A DNA stretch of 64,000 bases from Dictyostelium discoideum (Eukaryota). The position numbers and the translations under genes were made by a program. Below the pieces are notes generated by a model. The model did not search any database and was not told where the DNA came from. It worked only from the letters and a program-made list of their open reading frames with translations. The stretch lies in NCBI GenBank assembly GCA_000004695.1, contig CM000154.2, positions 5,061,353 to 5,125,352 of the forward strand, written 5' to 3'. Positions 6,099 through 59,242 of the stretch are shown here, in pieces (the stretch's first letter is position 1; each line of letters starts with the position of its first letter).

Positions 6099-7348
6099 TA
6101 AATATAATAAAAAAAAAAAAAAAAAGAATTATTTGTTAATAAATTTAATTTAATTTAAAAAAAAAATATAATTTTTTTTAAAAAAAAAAAAAAAAAACAT
6201 ACATGGGTAACTGGTAATAAATCTTTTTCTTTTTTTAACATTGATAAAACACCAACTACTAATTTTTGAATTTGAGATTCTAATTGTTCAACTGAAAGAA
6301 TTGAACAAATTGAACCAACTGCTTCAATGGTTACTAATCTAACTTTTTCATGATTTGTACCTAACCATTTTGAAAACATTAATTCAAGTGCTGGATAAAA
6401 TTCAGAACTAAAACTATACAATGTTAATGATTTATCTGGTGCTGTATCAATATTTGCAACATATTGCACAATTGCATCTGCAAAATGACCTAATGCTGCT
6501 GCAAATACCCATTTAAAATTATCATGTTTAATTGTACCTAAAACTGGTAAAATACGTGATAAAATTTCTCTAATTTTTGGTACAGTTGGTATTGCTATTT
6601 TTTAAAAAAAATAAGAATAATGGTTAATATATAAATATATATTTATTTTGTTATTATTTTATTTTTATTTTGAAAAAAAAAAAAAACATACGATTTGAAC
6701 TAATAAAATCACCTAAAGTTTTCATAACGAAATAATGTGGTAATGTACCTGGTTCAAAACGTTTTAATAATTCATCCATAATTTGTGATGGATAACGTAA
6801 ACCTAATGAAACCAATAATGATGATGCAACTTGTTGCCAATCTGGTACAACTTCTTTATCTCTTGTCATCTCTGAAATTGACATTGCAATTAAATTTAGT
6901 GATAATGCATCTGTTAATTGATTTCTAGTTTGTTCTAAAATTTGTAAAATACTATTTAAAATTTTAACCCTATGAGTTTGATCTATCTAAATACAAAAAA
7001 AAATATAAAAATAAAAAAATAAAAATAAAAATTGATTAGTTTTATTTTTATTTCACACACACACAAATAATCCTTTGGGAAAAAAAAAAAAAAAATTTTT
7101 TAAACAATAATTTAATCCAATTCAAAAAAAAAAAAAAAATAAACAATAATTTAATTGATTACCTTTTGGTTCTTATTTATATAATCACATGCAACTTGTA
7201 AAACAAAATTTGGTTGTCTAAAACCAATTTCGTATAAACTATTTACAACAGTACTTCTAACACTTTCATCACTGTCGCTTAATGATTGCAACAATGATGT
7301 GACAATATTATCCAAAACTGGAGAAATTTGTTGATTTTTTTTTGACAT
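1995..7348 (-). CDS. mroh1: Maestro heat-like repeat protein (MROH1/HEATR7A homolog), ~1647 aa. Exons complement(join(1995..6065,6203..6594,6692..6986,7163..7348)).
   Basis: Exon 2 translation (SEMTRDKEVVPDWQQVASSLLVSLGLRYPSQIMDELLKRFEPGTLPHYFVMKTLGDFISSN) aligns closely with human MROH1 residues ~95-160 (SSEMTKVKDLVWDWQQAASSVLVAVGRRF...LPHRAVLHTL). Exons 3 and 4 continue the alignment (ILSRILPVLGTIKHDNFKWVFAAALGHF; EVLRCFEVIGR vs EVLRCFTVLAC). The 1331-aa terminal exon has HEAT-like repeats. Introns have GTAATC/GTATGT donors and AG acceptors with frame continuity. Length matches human (1641 aa). Confidence 0.85.
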
Positions 7349-24719: not shown

Positions 24720-26077
<1,358 letters not shown>

Positions 26078-26371: not shown

Positions 26372-26771
26372 TTAAGTGATGATTATATTTGGTTCTTTAT
26401 TATCTTTATTTTCATCATTATTAATAATTTCCAATTGTTTAATAATTTCTTTTGAAATGTCTTTGTAATTTTTAGCTTGTGGTGAATCTGGTTGAGTTAC
26501 TGTTATAGGTTTACCACTGTCAGAAGTTTCTCTAATTTGTAAATGTATTGGAACATCACCTAGAAAATTTATACCCATTTTTTTTGCTGTATTTTTTGCA
26601 CCTTCATTACCAAAAATATGTGTTGATTCATTACAATGAGGACAATTAAAGTAACTCATATTTTCAACTAATCCTAGAATCTTTTTTTTTTTTTTTAAAA
26701 AAAAAATAAATAAATAATTAATTTTACCAATCATTGATAAATTTATATATATGAATATATATATATATGTA

Positions 26772-26824
<53 letters not shown>

Positions 26825-27511
26825 ATAAATAATTAAAAAAAAACTTACAGGTACTTCAACTTTTTTAAACATATTAACACCTCTAACAACATCAGCTAAA
26901 GCTACATCTTGAGGTGTTGAAACTATAACAGCACCAGTTAAAGGTACTCTTTGACACATTGTTAAGATAGCATCACCAGTACCAGGTGGTAAATCACAAA
27001 CCAATACATCCAAATGACCCCAATCAGTTTGACGTAATAATTTTTCTAAAGCACTACCAACCATTGGTCCTCTCCAAATGATTGGATCATCTTCATTCAC
27101 TAAAAATCCCATTGACATACATTTTATACCATAGTTTTGAAGTGGTATCATTTGATTAAGTTCATTAGTGAATGGTTTTTCATGATTTTTTAAATCCATC
27201 ATTAATGGTATCGATGGTCCAAATACATCTACATCTAATAATCCAACAGATAAATTATGAGATGATAATCCTAACGCTATATTAACTGCACATGTTGATT
27301 TTCCTACCCCTCCCTTTGCTGATGATACCGCTATAATATTCTTAATTCCTTCAATTGCTACTTTGGTTACTTGTGGTTGTCTATGACCACTACCACCATG
27401 TAATTGAATTTTATTGTTTGAAAAATAATTTCTTTTTCCACTTTCAAGTTGGAAAGTTATAAATTGCTTATTTGGGGAAAAGAATGGTGTGGTAATCAAT
27501 TTTTTGAACAT
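26372..27511 (-). CDS. nubpl: Mitochondrial Mrp/NBP35-type iron-sulfur P-loop ATPase NUBPL/Ind1 (complex I assembly factor), ~323 aa. Exons complement(join(26372..26680,26849..27511)).
   Basis: An N-terminal presequence-like extension is followed by [13 protein letters not shown] (Walker A) and then [20 protein letters not shown] and CDLPPGTGD. Across the intron come the family-defining [18 protein letters not shown] (CPxC motif) and a [19 protein letters not shown] tail. It is colinear with human NUBPL almost block for block. Confidence 0.85.
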
Positions 27512-27936
27512 TTTTTAGTTTACAAAAAAAAAAAAAAAAAAAAAAATTTAAAATAATGGTCCAAAAAAAACAGAACTGTTTTTATTTTCATATTTTTTTT
27601 TTTTTTCTCACTTTTTAAAAATTTTTTAATTTTTAATGGGCATTAAATAAAATAATTTTTTTTAAAAAAAAAAAAAAAATTCCCACCAAATGGAAATAAT
27701 AATTAATCCATATTCAGTAAACATCATTTAGCATTAATAATACACCGTGTGGTATTTGTAAAAAAAAACAAAAAAGTGTGAAATTTTATTTTAATACCTA
27801 TTTTTTAATTATTTAATTTTTTTTTTTTTTTTATTTATTTTATTTTATTTATTTATTATTTTCTTCTATTTATTTTTATATTTTGATGTTAAAATTTTAT
27901 AATTATTATTAACATTTATTATTTAAAACAATAAAC

Positions 27937-27967
<31 letters not shown>

Positions 27968-27987
27968 ATAATAATAAATAAAAAATA

Positions 27988-28881
27988 ATGAAATTATTAT
28001 TTTGTTTAATATTATTTCAATTAATAGTTTTAATAAAAAGTGAAAGAGAATATTTTACATTTCGAGAGGATGTACGTAGATGTGAAAGACCAAGATGTGG
28101 AGGATATTTTTTAAAAAAATTAAACTCTCGAGCAGATCATGAAATTTATGTAAGTAGTTTTATAATGGTAAATGCAAATTTAAATCCAATGGAAATTGAA
28201 GACCATGATCAAAATATTATCAGTGGGTATGTAATGCCATCTGATGAAGATGATGGTTATAATACATTCTTTTTAAAGGGAATACACGAAAGAATGGTAA
28301 TTCCAGATGTGATTAATAGTTATAAAAAAGTTTTGTCAAATAAAAAATTTAAAAATTCAGATTCATTTTATTTCCTTTCCAGCTCTCAAATTGAATGTAT
28401 TCAATCTGATGGTTGTCCAATTTATAAATCAATAAAGATCAATTTTAATGAATCAACAAATTTTGAATCATACACAGAGCCATACACATCAAATGTTCCT
28501 TTATTGGATTTAAATTGGTTCAATTCAAGATTAATTAAAAAGGATATTCATAGTCCTTATATTGGTTCAATTGTTTCTGGTACAATTAATGATAACCAAT
28601 TATCAATCACTGAAATTTTCATAAACACTGAAGATCCAGTTTTCCCTTGTAAAAGAAATACTTTTACTTGCACTACTCCTCAGGTTCCAACATTTTCTCG
28701 TTCAGTTGATCGTTGTCCAATATTTGAAAAATGTGTTACAAGATCTGTTTGTCATCTTGGAATTCCAACTTGCCCAAAAGGTTATAAATCTTATTCTTAC
28801 CCTTCTTTACCAAAAGGTTGCTTAAAATATTATTGTGACCCTGAAGCTTTACCAAATCCTCATAAAGTTTCTGGACCATAA
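27988..28881 (+). CDS. Secreted cysteine-rich protein of unknown family, 297 aa. Paralog A of a tandem pair.
   Basis: Single exon with signal peptide MKLLFCLILFQLIVLIKS. It has ~16 Cys including RRCERPRCGGYF, CIQSDGCPIYK, and a C-terminal module CPIFEKCVTRSVCHLGIPTCPKGYKSYSYPSLPKGCLKYYCDPEALPNPHKVSGP. It is alignable along its full length with the ORF at 29569..30450. Confidence 0.6.
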   Translation: MKLLFCLILFQLIVLIKSEREYFTFREDVRRCERPRCGGYFLKKLNSRADHEIYVSSFIMVNANLNPMEIEDHDQNIISGYVMPSDEDDGYNTFFLKGIHERMVIPDVINSYKKVLSNKKFKNSDSFYFLSSSQIECIQSDGCPIYKSIKINFNESTNFESYTEPYTSNVPLLDLNWFNSRLIKKDIHSPYIGSIVSGTINDNQLSITEIFINTEDPVFPCKRNTFTCTTPQVPTFSRSVDRCPIFEKCVTRSVCHLGIPTCPKGYKSYSYPSLPKGCLKYYCDPEALPNPHKVSGP

Positions 28882-28987
28882 AAATAAATAAAAATAATAA
28901 TAAAATCTACTAATTTATTTTTATATAAATCTTTTTCTTATTTTGTTTATTTTATTTCTTATTTTTTTATTATTAAAAAAAGAATTT

Positions 28988-29026
<39 letters not shown>

Positions 29027-29192
29027 AAATCCTAATTTGGGTTTACTTATTTTTTATATCATATTTATTTTAAAGTTTATTATTTTAAAATAAAATTAAC
29101 TTTGGAAAAAAAAGAAAAAAAAAATTACATAAATATAAAAATAATAAAAAAAGATATAAAAAAATTAAATAACTCCAAAATAAGATATTGAT

Positions 29193-29335
29193 TTTTTGGG
29201 GTTTTTTTATTACATTCAGCACATGTGTTGGTATGTTTTTTTTTTGTTTTTTTTTTGGGGGTAATAATAATTTTCTGAATGTTCTAACAAAAAATTATTA
29301 TTTCAATTTTTAATTTTATTAATGTTGTTATTATT

Positions 29336-29378
<43 letters not shown>

Positions 29379-29480
29379 TTTTTTTGGGGGTAATAATTTT
29401 CTGAATATACCAAAATAAATTATTTTTTTAATTTTTAATTTTTTTAATTTTTTAATTTTTATTTATTATTATTATTATTT
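29193..29480. repeat. Tandemly duplicated ~100-bp upstream element, each copy carrying T-run+GGGGG+TAATAA(TAA)TTTTCTGAAT, separated by (ATT)n, with a third TTTTTGGGG copy at 29193. It sits immediately 5' of the second cysteine-rich paralog.
   Basis: 29251-29280 ttttttttgggggtaataataattttctgaat and 29383-29406 tttttttttgggggtaataattttctgaat are each followed by aaaa..ttatt..tttaatttttaattt and tatttttatttattattatt. Shorter copy attttttggggttttttt at 29191-29208. G5 runs are rare in this A/T-rich intergenic DNA. Confidence 0.5.
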
Positions 29481-29568
29481 TTTTTTTTTTTTTAATAAAA
29501 AAAAAGTATAAATAGATTTTTTTTTTTTTATATTGATCAAAATAATATTAATAAAAAAAAATAAAAAA

Positions 29569-30450
29569 ATGAGAATATTAATTTTTTTAATAATATTAAT
29601 TCTAATAATAAATATTACTAATGGTAGTGATGAAGAATATTTCACAGTTCGTAAAGATTTACGTAAATGCGCAACTTGTGGTGGGTATTTCTTTAAAAGA
29701 ATAAATTCAGATGAAAAAGAAATGCATGTCACAGGACTTTCATTAATTAATGCTAATTTGAAACCAAATAAGATGGAAGATGAAAAGAATGTAATTATTA
29801 GTGGTGATATTACTTTAACTGATAAAGATCAAGGATTTTATAGTTTCTTCTTAAAAGGAATTCATCATAGAATGGTATTACCACCAAGTGATGATAATAA
29901 ATCAAATTCAAAAAATCTTAAAAATTCCACATCAGAATCATATGGTTTCATTTCAAATTCTGGTACTACTTGTATTCAAGCAAAGGGTTGTCCAATTTAT
30001 AAGTTTTCAAAAATCAATACCAATGAAACTACTAATTTTGCAACCTATACTGAACCTTATACATCCTGTGTTCCATTATTGGATAAAGATTGGTTCTCCT
30101 CGAGATTAATTAAAACTGATACTTCTTTTTATGTTGGTTCCATTGTCTTGGGATCAATTTCAAAGGGTGAATTAACAATTTCAAGTATTTTTGTTAATAC
30201 AGAAGATCCAGCCTTACCATGCCCAGAAAATCCAAGTTGTCCTGGTGGTAAAATTCAAACTTTTACTCGTTCCGTTAATCGTTGTCCAATCTTTAACAAA
30301 TGCGTAAATAGAGGTGTCTGTCATCTTGGAATTCCTCATTGTCCAGTTGGTTATACTTCTTATTCTTTACAATCTGCTCCAAATGGTTGTTTAAAGTATT
30401 ATTGTGATCCTGATTCTTTACCAAATCCATCAACTGTTTTAGGTCCTTAA
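29569..30450 (+). CDS. Secreted cysteine-rich protein of unknown family, 293 aa. Paralog B of the tandem pair.
   Basis: Real start is MRILIFLIILILIINITNG (the track ORF starts 36 nt earlier in A-rich leader). Motifs are shared with paralog A: EYFTVRKDLRKCATCGGYFFKR, CIQAKGCPIYKFSKINTNETTNF.TYTEPYTS.VPLLD, and the C-terminal CPIFNKCVNRGVCHLGIPHCPVGYTSYSLQSAPNGCLKYYCDPDSLPNPSTVLGP. Confidence 0.6.
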   Translation: MRILIFLIILILIINITNGSDEEYFTVRKDLRKCATCGGYFFKRINSDEKEMHVTGLSLINANLKPNKMEDEKNVIISGDITLTDKDQGFYSFFLKGIHHRMVLPPSDDNKSNSKNLKNSTSESYGFISNSGTTCIQAKGCPIYKFSKINTNETTNFATYTEPYTSCVPLLDKDWFSSRLIKTDTSFYVGSIVLGSISKGELTISSIFVNTEDPALPCPENPSCPGGKIQTFTRSVNRCPIFNKCVNRGVCHLGIPHCPVGYTSYSLQSAPNGCLKYYCDPDSLPNPSTVLGP

Positions 30451-30972: not shown

Positions 30973-31307
30973 ATGTCATCACCACCAAATAAATCAGTGG
31001 AAATTATGGAGGATTCAGTTATCCAAAATATTTTTGGAGAAAGTAGTGAAGAAGAATTAGAATTTTCATATCATACATATAAACGTATTGAAAATACAAG
31101 AGAAAATAAAGATGTCAAAGAAATTGTAGTTCGTCTATCTCAAAGACATAGTTTATGGGCACATTTACCATGGAATGCTGGTATTGCCTTATCTGATTAT
31201 TTTGATGAACATGTTGACTTTAAAAATAAAAAGTAAATAATAAAAAAAAAATTAAAAAATAAAAATAACTCTAATTTTATTTATTCCAAAAATAAATAAT
31301 AATAATA

Positions 31308-31382
<75 letters not shown>

Positions 31383-32042
31383 TATTATTATTTAATAAAG
31401 TGTACTTGAACTTGGATCAGGAGCAGGTTTACCATCATTTATAGCAGGATTGAATGGAGCAAAAAAAGTAGTTTTAACAGATTACCCAGACACAAATTTA
31501 ATTGAAAATTTAAATTATAATATTACAAATTCATTACCAGAGTCAGTTACAAAAGATCGTATATATGGTAAAGGACATCTTTGGGGTAAAGAACCTGAAT
31601 CTTTATTCCAATATTTAGAGAATCCATCAACTGAAAAATTTGATATCATCATTCTTTCAGATCTTATTTTCAACCACGCAGCTCATGATAAAATGTTAAT
31701 ATCTTGTTCAAAATGTTTATCAGATGATGGCGTTGTAAGTTTTTTACTTTTATTTATTTATTTATTTATTTTTTAATTTTTTATTATTTATTTAATTGAA
31801 AAAAACTACTTTTTATATATTAATATATTCATTATTATTTTTAGATTTATGTAACATTTTCACACCATAGACCAAATAGAATTGCAAAAGATTTAGCTTT
31901 CTTTGAAATTGCCACTGAAGAACCATACAATTTTACACCTGAAAAGTTTAATGAACGTAGAATGTGTGCAATGTTTGAAAATGATTTGGGTCCTGAAGAA
32001 ATTCGTTCAACTGTTTGTTTTTATACTTTAAAAAGAAAATAA
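30973..32042 (+). CDS. Class I SAM-dependent methyltransferase of the Methyltransf_16 (EFM/METTL21/Nnt1-like) family, ~308 aa. Exons join(30973..31232,31401..31734,31845..32042).
   Basis: Exon 1 ends ...SLWAHLPWNAGIALSDYFDEHVDFKNK. Exon 2 starts N-VLELGSGAGLPSFIAGLNGAKKVVLTDYPD (motif I, GxGxG) and continues DIIILSDLIFNHAAHDKMLISCSKCLSDDGV (motif post-II). Exon 3 is IYVTFSHHRPNRIAKDLAFFE.... Introns have GTAAAT/GTAAGT donors and AG acceptors with consistent phase. Confidence 0.6.
31296..31383. repeat. (AAT)~29 microsatellite inside intron 1 of the methyltransferase gene.
   Basis: Pure aat array read directly. It lies between the exon 1 donor (31233) and the exon 2 acceptor (31400). Confidence 0.9.
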
Positions 32043-39422: not shown

Positions 39423-39980
39423 AAAAAAAAAAAAAAAAAAAAAAAAGTTATATAAAAAAAAAAAAAATTTTTAAATAAATAAAATAAAATAAAAAAAAAT
39501 AAAAAATATAATAATAATTAATTTAATATAAAAAAAAAATATATATATTTATATATAAAAAATATAAATATTAATTTTATACAAAAATCTTCTCTTTCAA
39601 ATCTATGCCATATTAAAAATAAATAAGCTATAGTTTATTAATTATTAATTTATTTCAATAATTTTCCCCCATTTCCAAAAAAAAAAAAAAAATCCTTAAT
39701 AGGGAGAAATGAAAAGTTGGAAAAAAAAAAAAAAGTGGGTTTTCACTTATAAAAATTATTGAAATTCAATTTTATTTTTTTTTTTTTTTTTTTTTTTTCT
39801 CTAAACAATATTTATTAAAAAAATATTGCTTAGAAAAAAAAAAAAAATAAAACAAAAAAAAAAAAGATAGAATATTATTTGTATTAATAAAAAAATAATA
39901 AAAAAAAAAATAAAAAAAATAAAAAAAAAGAGATAGAATATTATTTGTATTAATAAAAAAAAAAAAAATAAAAATAAAAA

Positions 39981-53346: not shown

Positions 53347-53458
53347 GGATTAAAATATATTTATATTAAAAATAAAAAAAATTATTAATAATAATAAATA
53401 AAATAATAATAAATAAATTTTTATTTCTGGGGGGACCCCGAATAAAAAAATAAAGAAA

Positions 53459-57635: not shown

Positions 57636-58159
57636 AAATTATCACAAACACACACACAATCACACAAGTGGTGTTTTAGTAATTATAATATTGTAATTTA
57701 ATAATTCATATTCGTTTAGATCATCCATAATTTAATTCAAATTTACAATTGTAATTTTACCACAAATTTCTATTTTTTAAAATCACTTTTATTTTATTTT
57801 TACTTTTTTAATCTTCAAATTTCTAAAATATTATTTGTTTTTATATAATTTATTTTTTTTATTTTACTTTTTTTTTATTTTTTTATTTTTTTATTATTAT
57901 TATTTTTTTTATTAATCTATTATTATTATTTATTTATTACTTAATATTACATTATCATTTATACATTTATTTGTTATATCTAAAGTTTTTATTTTATTTT
58001 ATTTTCTTGATCATAAACATTACAAAGTGTAAAATCAATAATTGGAATAAAAAAAAAAAAAAAAAATAAAATAAAAAAAAATCCTTGGTGGTAGTATTTT
58101 TTTTTATATTATTATTATTATTTCCAAATCAAATTGTCTAAAAATAGTACATATTATTA

Positions 58160-58640: not shown

Positions 58641-58664
58641 TGTGTGTGTGTGTGTGTGTGTGTT
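58641..58664. repeat. (TG)12 dinucleotide repeat followed by a GC-richer unique segment (ggtcaagccgattcaactttaattcgcccgttctatgtactc), ~750 bp upstream of the hydrolase-SAM gene. A CACCC-rich box (ccaaacacccacacaccc) lies at 58909-58926.
   Basis: tgtgtgtgtgtgtgtgtgtgtgtg at 58641-58664. GT/CA-rich elements of this kind are the class bound by the G-box binding factor in Dictyostelium developmental promoters. It is called from sequence only. Confidence 0.5.
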
Positions 58665-59242
58665 GTATATGTGTGGTCAAGCCGATTCAACTTTAATTCG
58701 CCCGTTCTATGTACTCTCAATCTAAAGAAAAAATGCATAAAAAAACCAATTTTGTTCAGTTATTTTTGTTTTTTATTTTTATTTTTATTTATTTTTATTT
58801 TTATTTTGTTTATTTTATTTTTATTTCCCAAATACAGTACCTTTTATTTTTGTTATTATTATTATTTTTATTATTATTATTATTAATTCCAATTTTTTAT
58901 AATTTTTTTTCCAAACACCCACACACCCAATTTTTTTTTTTTATTTATTTTTTTTTTTTATTTTCTATTTTTTTTAATTATTATTATTATTATTTTTTTT
59001 GTTAGTATACATAATAATTATTATAACACATAAATTAGTTTTATTGATAAATATTTATCCCATTCCAAAAAAGACTAACTTTTTATTTCTATATTTATTA
59101 ATAGAACTAAAATCATAAAATTTAAAAAAAAAAAAAAATAAAAAAAAAAAAATAAAATAAAATAAAAAAATAATATTATAATTTTTTTATTTTATTACTC
59201 TTGTAAATATAATTTATCTTCAATATATTCAAATCAGAGAAG

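Follow-up and report, generated by a model that had tools for sequence, protein, structure and literature searches.

The tandem DUF6748 genes of Dictyostelium discoideum: two predicted secreted, cysteine-rich paralogues that differ in developmental timing and level

Background

Why does a social amoeba keep two adjacent, related genes for cysteine-rich proteins, and what might their products do? The question is raised by a 64,000-nucleotide stretch of Dictyostelium discoideum DNA (GenBank assembly GCA_000004695.1, contig CM000154.2, positions 5,061,353 to 5,125,352 of the forward strand; hereafter the window), which is AT-rich (G+C content 23.5 %) and in which two intronless genes lie on the + strand, separated by a spacer of 687 base pairs (bp). 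Gene A corresponds to DDB_G0291169 (XP_635376, Q54F14) and gene B to DDB_G0291171 (XP_635377, Q54F13) of D. discoideum AX4; both translations are identical to the database proteins, which are likewise annotated as intronless.

An earlier note, made from the letters of this DNA, had described a same-strand pair of paralogous, secreted-type, cysteine-rich and intronless genes, and this description is borne out by the open reading frames (ORFs), by BLASTP, by the AX4 protein matches and by hydropathy. Each gene is a single uninterrupted reading frame, of 297 (A) and 293 (B) amino acids (aa) plus stop, in agreement with the announced size of about 295 aa; the announced distance of 700 bp was approximately right. 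A program-made list of ORFs opens gene B at an upstream TTG (29533), the real ATG being at 29569. Proteins A and B share 56 % identity across 280 aa (BLASTP, E 1e-109).

Taking together the evidence given below, we put at roughly 0.55 the probability of a joint reading: that A and B are non-catalytic, disulfide-braced extracellular binding or matrix proteins, B being the bulk product and A a copy for culmination, and that an element made of a G-run and the 10-mer TTTTCTGAAT drives gene B, possibly via GBF. The pair is of interest as a clean and recent tandem duplicate that has diverged in developmental timing and that carries a compact conserved promoter element.

Membership of the DUF6748 family

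The two proteins had been thought to fit no recognisable family, a claim that falls since both exceed the curated gathering score (27 bits) of Pfam PF20533 (DUF6748), with 42.8 bits (E 6e-11) for A and 30.0 bits (E 5e-7) for B; the novelty claimed for them goes with it, a Pfam match being what the earlier note had itself set against novelty. UniProt already labels gene A 'DUF6748 domain-containing protein', and both genes and family are already catalogued, i.e. as annotated hypothetical proteins and as a domain of unknown function. DUF6748 is the sole Pfam match in 30 of 32 diverse aligned members. The statement that the proteins are not countin, saposin-like or papain-like stands, as Pfam, NCBIfam and PDB sequence searches give no such match; whether run with single proteins or with the family profile, the searches of NCBIfam and of PDB sequences returned nothing except a uricase at E 0.83, i.e. 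noise.

Protein architecture

In each protein the N-terminal 17-19 residues form the only hydrophobic segment. The secretion call was based on Kyte-Doolittle 19-residue windows above 1.6, which are found only at residues 1-4, and by the same hydropathy measure neither a second transmembrane segment nor a C-terminal hydrophobic tail of the glycosylphosphatidylinositol (GPI) anchor type occurs in A or B. The predicted mature N-termini are SEREYF... and SDEEYF..., the T and G at -3/-1 of gene B being compatible with a signal-peptidase site, and the first cysteine stands at residue 32/34. Many bacterial relatives carry a lipoprotein-type signal at the position homologous to the signal peptide of gene A. 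An extracellular location of gene B is supported by its Gene Ontology annotation (GO:0005615, 'extracellular space') together with the sole N-terminal hydrophobic segment.

Twelve cysteines are aligned in the mature proteins (32, 37, 137, 143, 221, 228, 243, 249, 255, 262, 278 and 283 in gene A), enough for six disulfides. The conserved framework noticed previously is real, the count of about 14 is not; gene A has one further cysteine in its signal peptide and gene B one unpaired at residue 167. In a cross-kingdom alignment of 32 sequences, all 12 are invariant or at least 90 % conserved, together with W175 (gene B), Arg234/238, Pro256, Gly-Tyr 261-262, Asp280 and Asn 46 and 150; no His/Ser/Asp/Glu set suggesting catalysis is conserved in this alignment. 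The C-terminal motif is as previously described, and no other part of the protein is conserved so well. Where cysteines are lost, they are lost pairwise: a third Dictyostelium paralogue has no first pair, and two other members (P0031 and P0100) have no second pair. Because of this pairwise loss, local disulfides 32-37 and 137-143 are supported.

A model of the mature gene A protein was built with AlphaFold2 from an alignment with 26 homologues (mean predicted local distance difference test, pLDDT, 81.9; predicted template modelling score, pTM, 0.82). From the N-terminus on, it shows a barrel of five strands, a Lys/Asn-rich linker that is disordered, another barrel that includes two short helices, and a C-terminal unit whose four strands form two hairpins (pLDDT 90-93). 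Both barrels share a strand, a Cys-x4/5-Cys loop and then a strand ending in Val/Leu-Asn. When the profiles of the two repeats were compared with hhalign, they matched with 97 % probability (E 1.1e-10, 79 columns), and a local rerun of the comparison scored 45.0 against a mean of 9.4 (sd 2.2, maximum 16.7) in 40 column shuffles. DUF6748 is therefore an internal duplication of a module of ~85 aa, followed by a separate module with eight cysteines. The predicted architecture thus consists of a signal sequence, two homologous ~85-aa barrel repeats resembling the oligonucleotide/oligosaccharide-binding (OB) fold, and a C-terminal ~70-aa 8-Cys module. The PF20533 model aligns to A and B at profile positions 1-137 of 196 only; it spans the two barrels and leaves the 8-Cys module uncovered.

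Foldseek gave no neighbour at E<=1e-3 for the model, the weak leaders being tandem-OB proteins (HIN-200, RNase R and SSB); this is a predicted architecture with no solved structural neighbour. The closest known fold comparison is provided by OB-fold domains, i.e. those of cold-shock proteins, SSB/PriB, the HIN-200 tandem OB and the B subunits of AB5 toxins. Among known Cys-rich extracellular modules (EGF, EB, TIL, granulin and others), none gave a Pfam match above threshold or appeared as a structural neighbour of the C-terminal module. An EGF or EB module was considered for the C-terminal region and rejected, the matches being sub-threshold.

Two fusions were considered as functional clues. 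A bacterial-type member of 469 aa (P0157) has a CUB domain C-terminal to its DUF6748 unit, which says only 'extracellular'. A eukprot model of 619 aa (P0034) joins SRR1 to DUF6748; it was set aside, as it probably represents two merged genes.

Distribution of the family

The family had been described as lineage-restricted, which does not hold: when 1.84 billion cluster representatives were searched exhaustively with HMMER and gene B as query, relatives turned up in 243 clusters at E<=1e-3 (136 at E<=1e-10), covering all named dictyostelid groups and many bacterial proteins. Most relatives are 270-310 aa long and align end to end. Homology to the bacterial members is full-length, since phmmer aligned residues ~20-285 of gene B to proteins of 280-310 aa, and full-length HMMER alignments with bacterial members reach E values down to 1e-27.

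All eukaryotic relatives that carry a name are dictyostelids: D. purpureum, Polysphondylium violaceum, Tieghemostelium lacteum, Cavenderia fasciculata, Acytostelium subglobosum and Synstelium polycarpum, along with several species of the D. discoideum complex. Among the remaining relatives, a large proportion are rich in Ala, Gly and Arg and carry a lipoprotein-type signal with a cysteine; those with a name are one from a Byssovorax sp. ('DUF6748 domain-containing protein') and one from a 'Deltaproteobacteria' metagenome-assembled genome. When one genome per GTDB species was scanned, 18 of the 18 confirmed bacterial loci belonged to Myxococcota, an exclusivity that is biased because the peptide patterns used in the scan were derived from Myxococcota sequences. 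Most metagenomic members carry no taxonomic name, which is a second caveat on the distribution. 'Dictyostelia plus Myxococcota only' is what was seen, and no proven limit.

Myxococcota DUF6748 proteins (e.g. Byssovorax sp., P0170) resemble those of Dictyostelium in length (~290 aa), in their two repeats with Cys loops, in the 8-Cys C-terminal module and in the same invariant Trp, Arg, Gly-Tyr and Cys-Asp-Pro positions; the architecture and the 12 cysteines are common to the Myxococcota proteins and to all named dictyostelid groups. They differ in that many have a lipoprotein-type signal with a cysteine and their genes are GC-rich, whereas the Dictyostelium signal is plain and cleavable. Among ORFs within 5 kb of the gene at the 18 Myxococcota loci, no conserved neighbours were found except antisense shadow ORFs, and there is therefore no operon hint.

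In a neighbor-joining tree of 153 members, a clade with AT-type codons (66 members) stands apart from a GC-type clade (82 members, plus a few odd ones). This clean split is compatible with one old transfer, and sequence composition could contribute to it. The occurrence of named members solely in social amoebae and myxobacteria also points to an old transfer between kingdoms; we found no literature on the sharing of DUF6748 between these groups. Myxobacteria and Dictyostelia are the two classic soil lineages with aggregative multicellular development. A bolder proposal would be that the DUF6748 module went through a single horizontal transfer between myxobacteria and the ancestor of Dictyostelia, and does the same surface or matrix job during aggregation and fruiting on both sides, with a structurally new fold; we regard this as improbable.

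Expression during development

Expression values were taken from the Parikh 2010 time course and the cell-type data given in Kin et al. 2018 (PMC6198379, file 5). Gene B stands at 1.4 at 0 h, 74 at 4 h, 1832 at 8 h, 1962 at 12 h, 1742 at 16 h, 1249 at 20 h and 1536 at 24 h, while gene A goes through 0.13, 0.5, 6.3, 8.9, 59, 151 and 182 at the same times. By cell type, the values for B and A are respectively 981 and 16.4 (prespore), 804 and 19.3 (prestalk), 629 and 19 (cup), 35 and 1.0 (spore), 34 and 2.1 (stalk) and 0.7 and 0.8 (vegetative); both genes are listed in the cup-enriched sheet of the same paper. The filter-development lists of Rosengarten et al. 2015 (PMC4403905, file 7) place gene B under 'gradual up' at both 9 h and 10 h; gene A, when we counted the tab-separated columns ourselves, falls in those for 14 h and 20 h. 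At the protein level, a 2026 life-cycle proteome obtained by mass spectrometry (PMC12821622) reports protein B (Q54F13) at the mound and culmination stages, not in vegetative, aggregation or fruiting-body samples, and does not list protein A.

Gene B is thus induced more than 1000-fold between 0 and 8 h, is very abundant through development in both prespore and prestalk cells and is later cup-enriched; gene A is about 10-fold weaker and rises only from ~14-16 h to culmination. The ratio of nonsynonymous to synonymous substitution rates (dN/dS) between orthologues is 0.19-0.43 for both genes, i.e. both copies are under purifying selection. The expression check proposed in the earlier note for dead duplicates was clear in its outcome, and this possibility is rejected on the transcripts of both genes, the detection of protein B and dN/dS. 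Both genes are alive and differ mainly in timing and level.

Gene B is among the most strongly induced and abundant post-aggregative transcripts, yet we found no paper that discusses it: the gene identifiers and 'DUF6748' were absent from the literature text searched, the genes being present in supplementary tables. Neither gene occurs in the supplementary lists from GtaC chromatin immunoprecipitation.

The element upstream of gene B

The spacer between the two genes holds a duplicated, G-containing block that had been pointed out from the sequence and is genuine: two units of ~129 bp are 78 % identical across 136 columns, with an alignment score of 75.5 against a mean of 8.7 and a maximum of 51 in 300 AT-rich control segments. 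Three motifs TTTTTGGGG had been placed inside a ~100-bp duplicated block; there are indeed exactly three in the window (29193, 29252 and 29381), all within 190 bp of each other upstream of gene B, of which the second and third alone lie in the duplication, and the unit is longer than was stated. Their window-wide number is not above chance (3 vs 2.0 expected); in the 687-bp spacer, runs of at least four G number 3 vs 0.19 expected (Poisson P 0.001). The units share a core made of a T-run, GGGGG, TAATAA(TAA) and TTTTCTGAAT. This 10-mer occurs twice in the 64 kb, both times inside the 129-bp units. The spacer upstream of gene A (27512-27987) contains no run of at least four G.

The same arrangement is found upstream of gene B at the corresponding loci (L001-L004) of D. 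firmibasis, D. dimigraforme, D. citrinum and a 'cf. discoideum' strain (with AX4, five species), the remaining spacer barely aligning. Each of the five has 2-3 runs of at least four G between A and B, on the coding strand only; a T-run stands before every G-run, although in one of the D. citrinum copies it is interrupted, and no C-runs were found in the A-B spacer of any of the five. In four of the five, the distance from the proximal G-run to the ATG is 181-194 bp. The start codon of B is directly preceded in D. dimigraforme (L002, 3820-3990) by a long (GAAAAA)n microsatellite, which displaces the G-runs from about -185 to about -390/-410. The check in D. purpureum suggested by the earlier note gave a divided answer: in its 10.9-kb locus (L023), TTTTCTGAAT is kept as a sole copy, in the orientation of the orthologue and 152 bp upstream of it, and the G-run is absent.

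The consensus of the GBF response element is (T/G)G(T/G)G(T/G)G(T/G) (PMC2257962), and the heptamer TGGGGGT, present at 29256 and 29385, agrees with this half-site; in D. firmibasis two copies stand side by side, TGGGGGTGGGGT. Like the GBF-dependent post-aggregative genes (lagC, sigN), gene B is induced at the aggregation-to-mound transition and has G-rich boxes that fit the consensus, with two boxes per promoter in every species. Unlike in those genes, its boxes combine a T-run with a G-run instead of mixing G and T, stand 129 bp from each other in AX4 and go together with a further conserved motif, TTTTCTGAAT, for which no binding factor is known; a literature text search for TTCTGAA returned unrelated papers only. 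GBF control of gene B is best regarded as a lead, not a demonstration.

Elsewhere in the window, (TG)n/(CA)n microsatellites (58641-58670, 57648-57658, 7055-7065 and 58915-58930) yield many of the matches to the GBF half-site, whose consensus is loose. Runs of at least five G or C had been called almost absent outside the block; they are rare but not unique to the locus, as five of the seven in the window lie away from it. Such runs occur in very AT-rich intergenic DNA at 415-424 (TGTGGGGGGGC), 710-714 (AAAGGGGGTTG), 53428-53442 (CTGGGGGGACCCCG, a G6 run beside a C4 run) and 39666-39670 (TTTCCCCCATT), and may be G-box-type promoter elements of other genes.

Proposed function and alternatives

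The reading that we prefer would make A and B non-enzymatic, disulfide-stabilised proteins deposited between or on the cells of the multicellular stage. The non-enzymatic part is proposed because the residues conserved family-wide are only cysteines, Trp, Arg, Gly-Tyr, Asn, Pro and Asp. A ligand would be bound by the two OB-like barrels, and our guess is that it is a glycan or a polymer of the matrix. After the duplication, the copies would have diverged in regulation rather than in fold, and the post-aggregative switch-on of B would most likely pass through the T-run, GGGG(G), TAATAA and TTTTCTGAAT element ~180 bp upstream.

Several points weigh against this proposal. 'Non-catalytic' would follow from an absence, i.e. 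that of conserved catalytic residues. Of two replicates, one contained protein B, and the fractions came from whole cells, not from secreted material (PMC12821622). Regarding the element, the clustering of G-runs has a Poisson P of 0.001 in AX4 and of 0.03-0.09 in the other species, values that are not independent because the species are closely related. As TTTTCTGAAT alone survives in D. purpureum, the G-run may not be an essential part of the element. Finally, the perfect GBF half-sites of AX4, at their spacing of one unit, do not form a tight pair.

The proteins could instead be diffusible extracellular signalling factors, in line with the guess of extracellular signalling or adhesion in the earlier note, and comparable to the secreted factors by which Dictyostelium regulates cell number or differentiation. 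The signal peptide with no membrane anchor, the 'extracellular space' term of gene B and the developmentally timed expression would all suit such a role. However, the mRNA of B stays at ~1200-2000 units for 16 h, which better fits a bulk or structural product; many bacterial relatives, having lipoprotein-type signals, would be membrane-tethered; and Pfam and PDB sequence searches revealed no receptor, processing site or likeness to a known factor. We consider signalling unlikely.

On a par with it, and also unlikely in our view, is a role as glycan-binding defence or anti-bacterial proteins, comparable to lectins or toxin B subunits, that would protect the multicellular stage and whose gene would have been horizontally transferred between two soil predators of bacteria. 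This is opposed by an expression near zero in feeding cells (0.7-1.4), by structural matches that all remain below significance and by the absence, at the bacterial loci, of any conserved toxin A subunit, secretion gene or other neighbour.

Still less probable are extracellular protease inhibitors built on a disulfide-braced beta-barrel, like TIMPs or potempins. In TIMPs, the Cys1-x-Cys3 of the mature N-terminus chelates the metal of the protease; a TIMP/NTR-type inhibitor was rejected here, as A and B have no N-terminal cysteine (the first being at 32/34) and no Pfam TIMP or NTR match.

Slippage of low-complexity DNA with no regulatory role, as an explanation of the upstream G-run block, would agree with the unremarkable window-wide count of TTTTTGGGG and with surroundings rich in simple repeats, but is very improbable given that the motifs cluster strand-specifically, that five species keep them about equally far from the ATG despite poorly aligning flanks, and that the adjoining TTTTCTGAAT is kept in D. 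purpureum.

Five items were not found reported in the literature searched: that named members come only from Dictyostelia and Myxococcota, that the protein contains an internal repeat, that its C-terminal module lies outside the Pfam model, that it has no structural neighbour, and that the promoter element is conserved. These items are modest leads rather than a surprise.

Features and history of the locus

The features of the two genes, of the upstream element and of the neighbouring genes are listed in Table 1. In gene A, the linker between the repeats is the most variable part of the alignments.

Table 1 Position of the genes, predicted protein parts and upstream motifs in the window
Feature	Position	Strand	Basis and remarks
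Gene A, DUF6748-family predicted secreted protein	27988-28881	+	ORF, XP_635376 match, Pfam 42.8 bits; late, low-expression paralogue
Gene A signal peptide, aa 1-17, MKLLFCLILFQLIVLIK	27988-28038	+	Sole hydrophobic 19-residue window; putative cleavage site
Gene A repeat 1, aa ~20-103	28045-28296	+	AlphaFold2 strands at mature residues 4-85, pLDDT ~70-89; profile-profile match to repeat 2; predicted OB-like five-stranded beta-barrel with C32-x4-C37 loop, conserved GGY, Asn46
Gene A Lys/Asn-rich linker, aa ~109-120	28312-28347	+	AlphaFold2 pLDDT <50 at mature residues 92-103
Gene A repeat 2, aa ~126-213	28363-28626	+	AlphaFold2 strands and helices at mature residues 109-196, pLDDT 82-92; hhalign; predicted OB-like barrel with C137-x5-C143 loop, Asn152, invariant Trp177
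Gene A C-terminal 8-Cys module, aa ~218-290	28639-28857	+	Two predicted beta-hairpins; outside the Pfam DUF6748 model; C221, C228, C243, C249, C255, C262, C278, C283
Distal TTTTTGGGG	29193-29201	+	Outside the duplicated block; weakly conserved (GGG only) in the cf. discoideum strain
Tandem-duplication unit 1	29236-29364	+	Core 29252-29280, TTTTTGGGGGTAATAATAATTTTCTGAAT
Tandem-duplication unit 2	29365-29493	+	Core 29381-29406, TTTTTGGGGGTAATAATTTTCTGAAT; G-run 183 bp upstream of the ATG
Gene B, early, very highly expressed paralogue	29569-30450	+	ORF, XP_635377 match, Pfam 30.0 bits
Gene B signal peptide, aa 1-19, MRILIFLIILILIINITNG	29569-29625	+	Hydropathy; putative cleavage site
Gene B repeat 1, aa 22-104	29632-29880	+	Alignment and hhalign
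Gene B repeat 2, aa 124-212	29938-30204	+	Alignment and hhalign
Gene B C-terminal 8-Cys module, aa ~215-286	30211-30426	+	Invariant cysteines C218, C224, C239, C245, C251, C258, C274, C279
Papain-like cysteine protease (split ORFs)	24873-25648	-	Neighbour block
Two-exon Mrp/ParA-type ATPase, divergent from gene A	26372-27511	-	Neighbour block
Two-exon Methyltransf_16 gene, downstream of gene B	30973-31776	+	Neighbour block

Across the whole window (1-64000), no Rfam family at its gathering threshold and no tRNA gene was found. The order cysteine protease, ParA/Mrp-like ATPase, A, B, Methyltransf_16 is conserved in all five species named above. D. purpureum has a single gene (DICPUDRAFT_91339, F0ZAW0) beside the same ATPase gene, with no tandem partner, and in the tree the clades of A and B are sisters with the D. 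purpureum gene outside; the duplication therefore postdates the split from D. purpureum. It took place before the radiation of firmibasis, dimigraforme, citrinum and discoideum, and A and B are a young tandem pair. Two strain annotations of gene A appear to be wrongly modelled: that of a D. discoideum strain (P0006, ACTFIR_002828) has 234 aa with an aberrant internal stretch, and at L004 (2402-3376) a 324-aa model with no Pfam hit stands where a gene A orthologue of ~295-300 aa is expected.

The D. purpureum gene and an older third Dictyostelium paralogue (P0011-P0013), which groups with genes of P. violaceum and T. lacteum, belong to the same family as A and B and share their architecture. 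The third paralogue differs from A and B by the loss of the first Cys pair and by low-complexity inserts; the D. purpureum gene differs from B in having neither a tandem partner nor an upstream G-run, TTTTCTGAAT being kept at about -150. In Cavenderia fasciculata, DFA_03720 and DFA_03721 (P0028 and P0022) form a separate tandem pair whose members are each other's closest relatives in the tree, and because this pair arose independently, tandem duplication recurs in the DUF6748 family.

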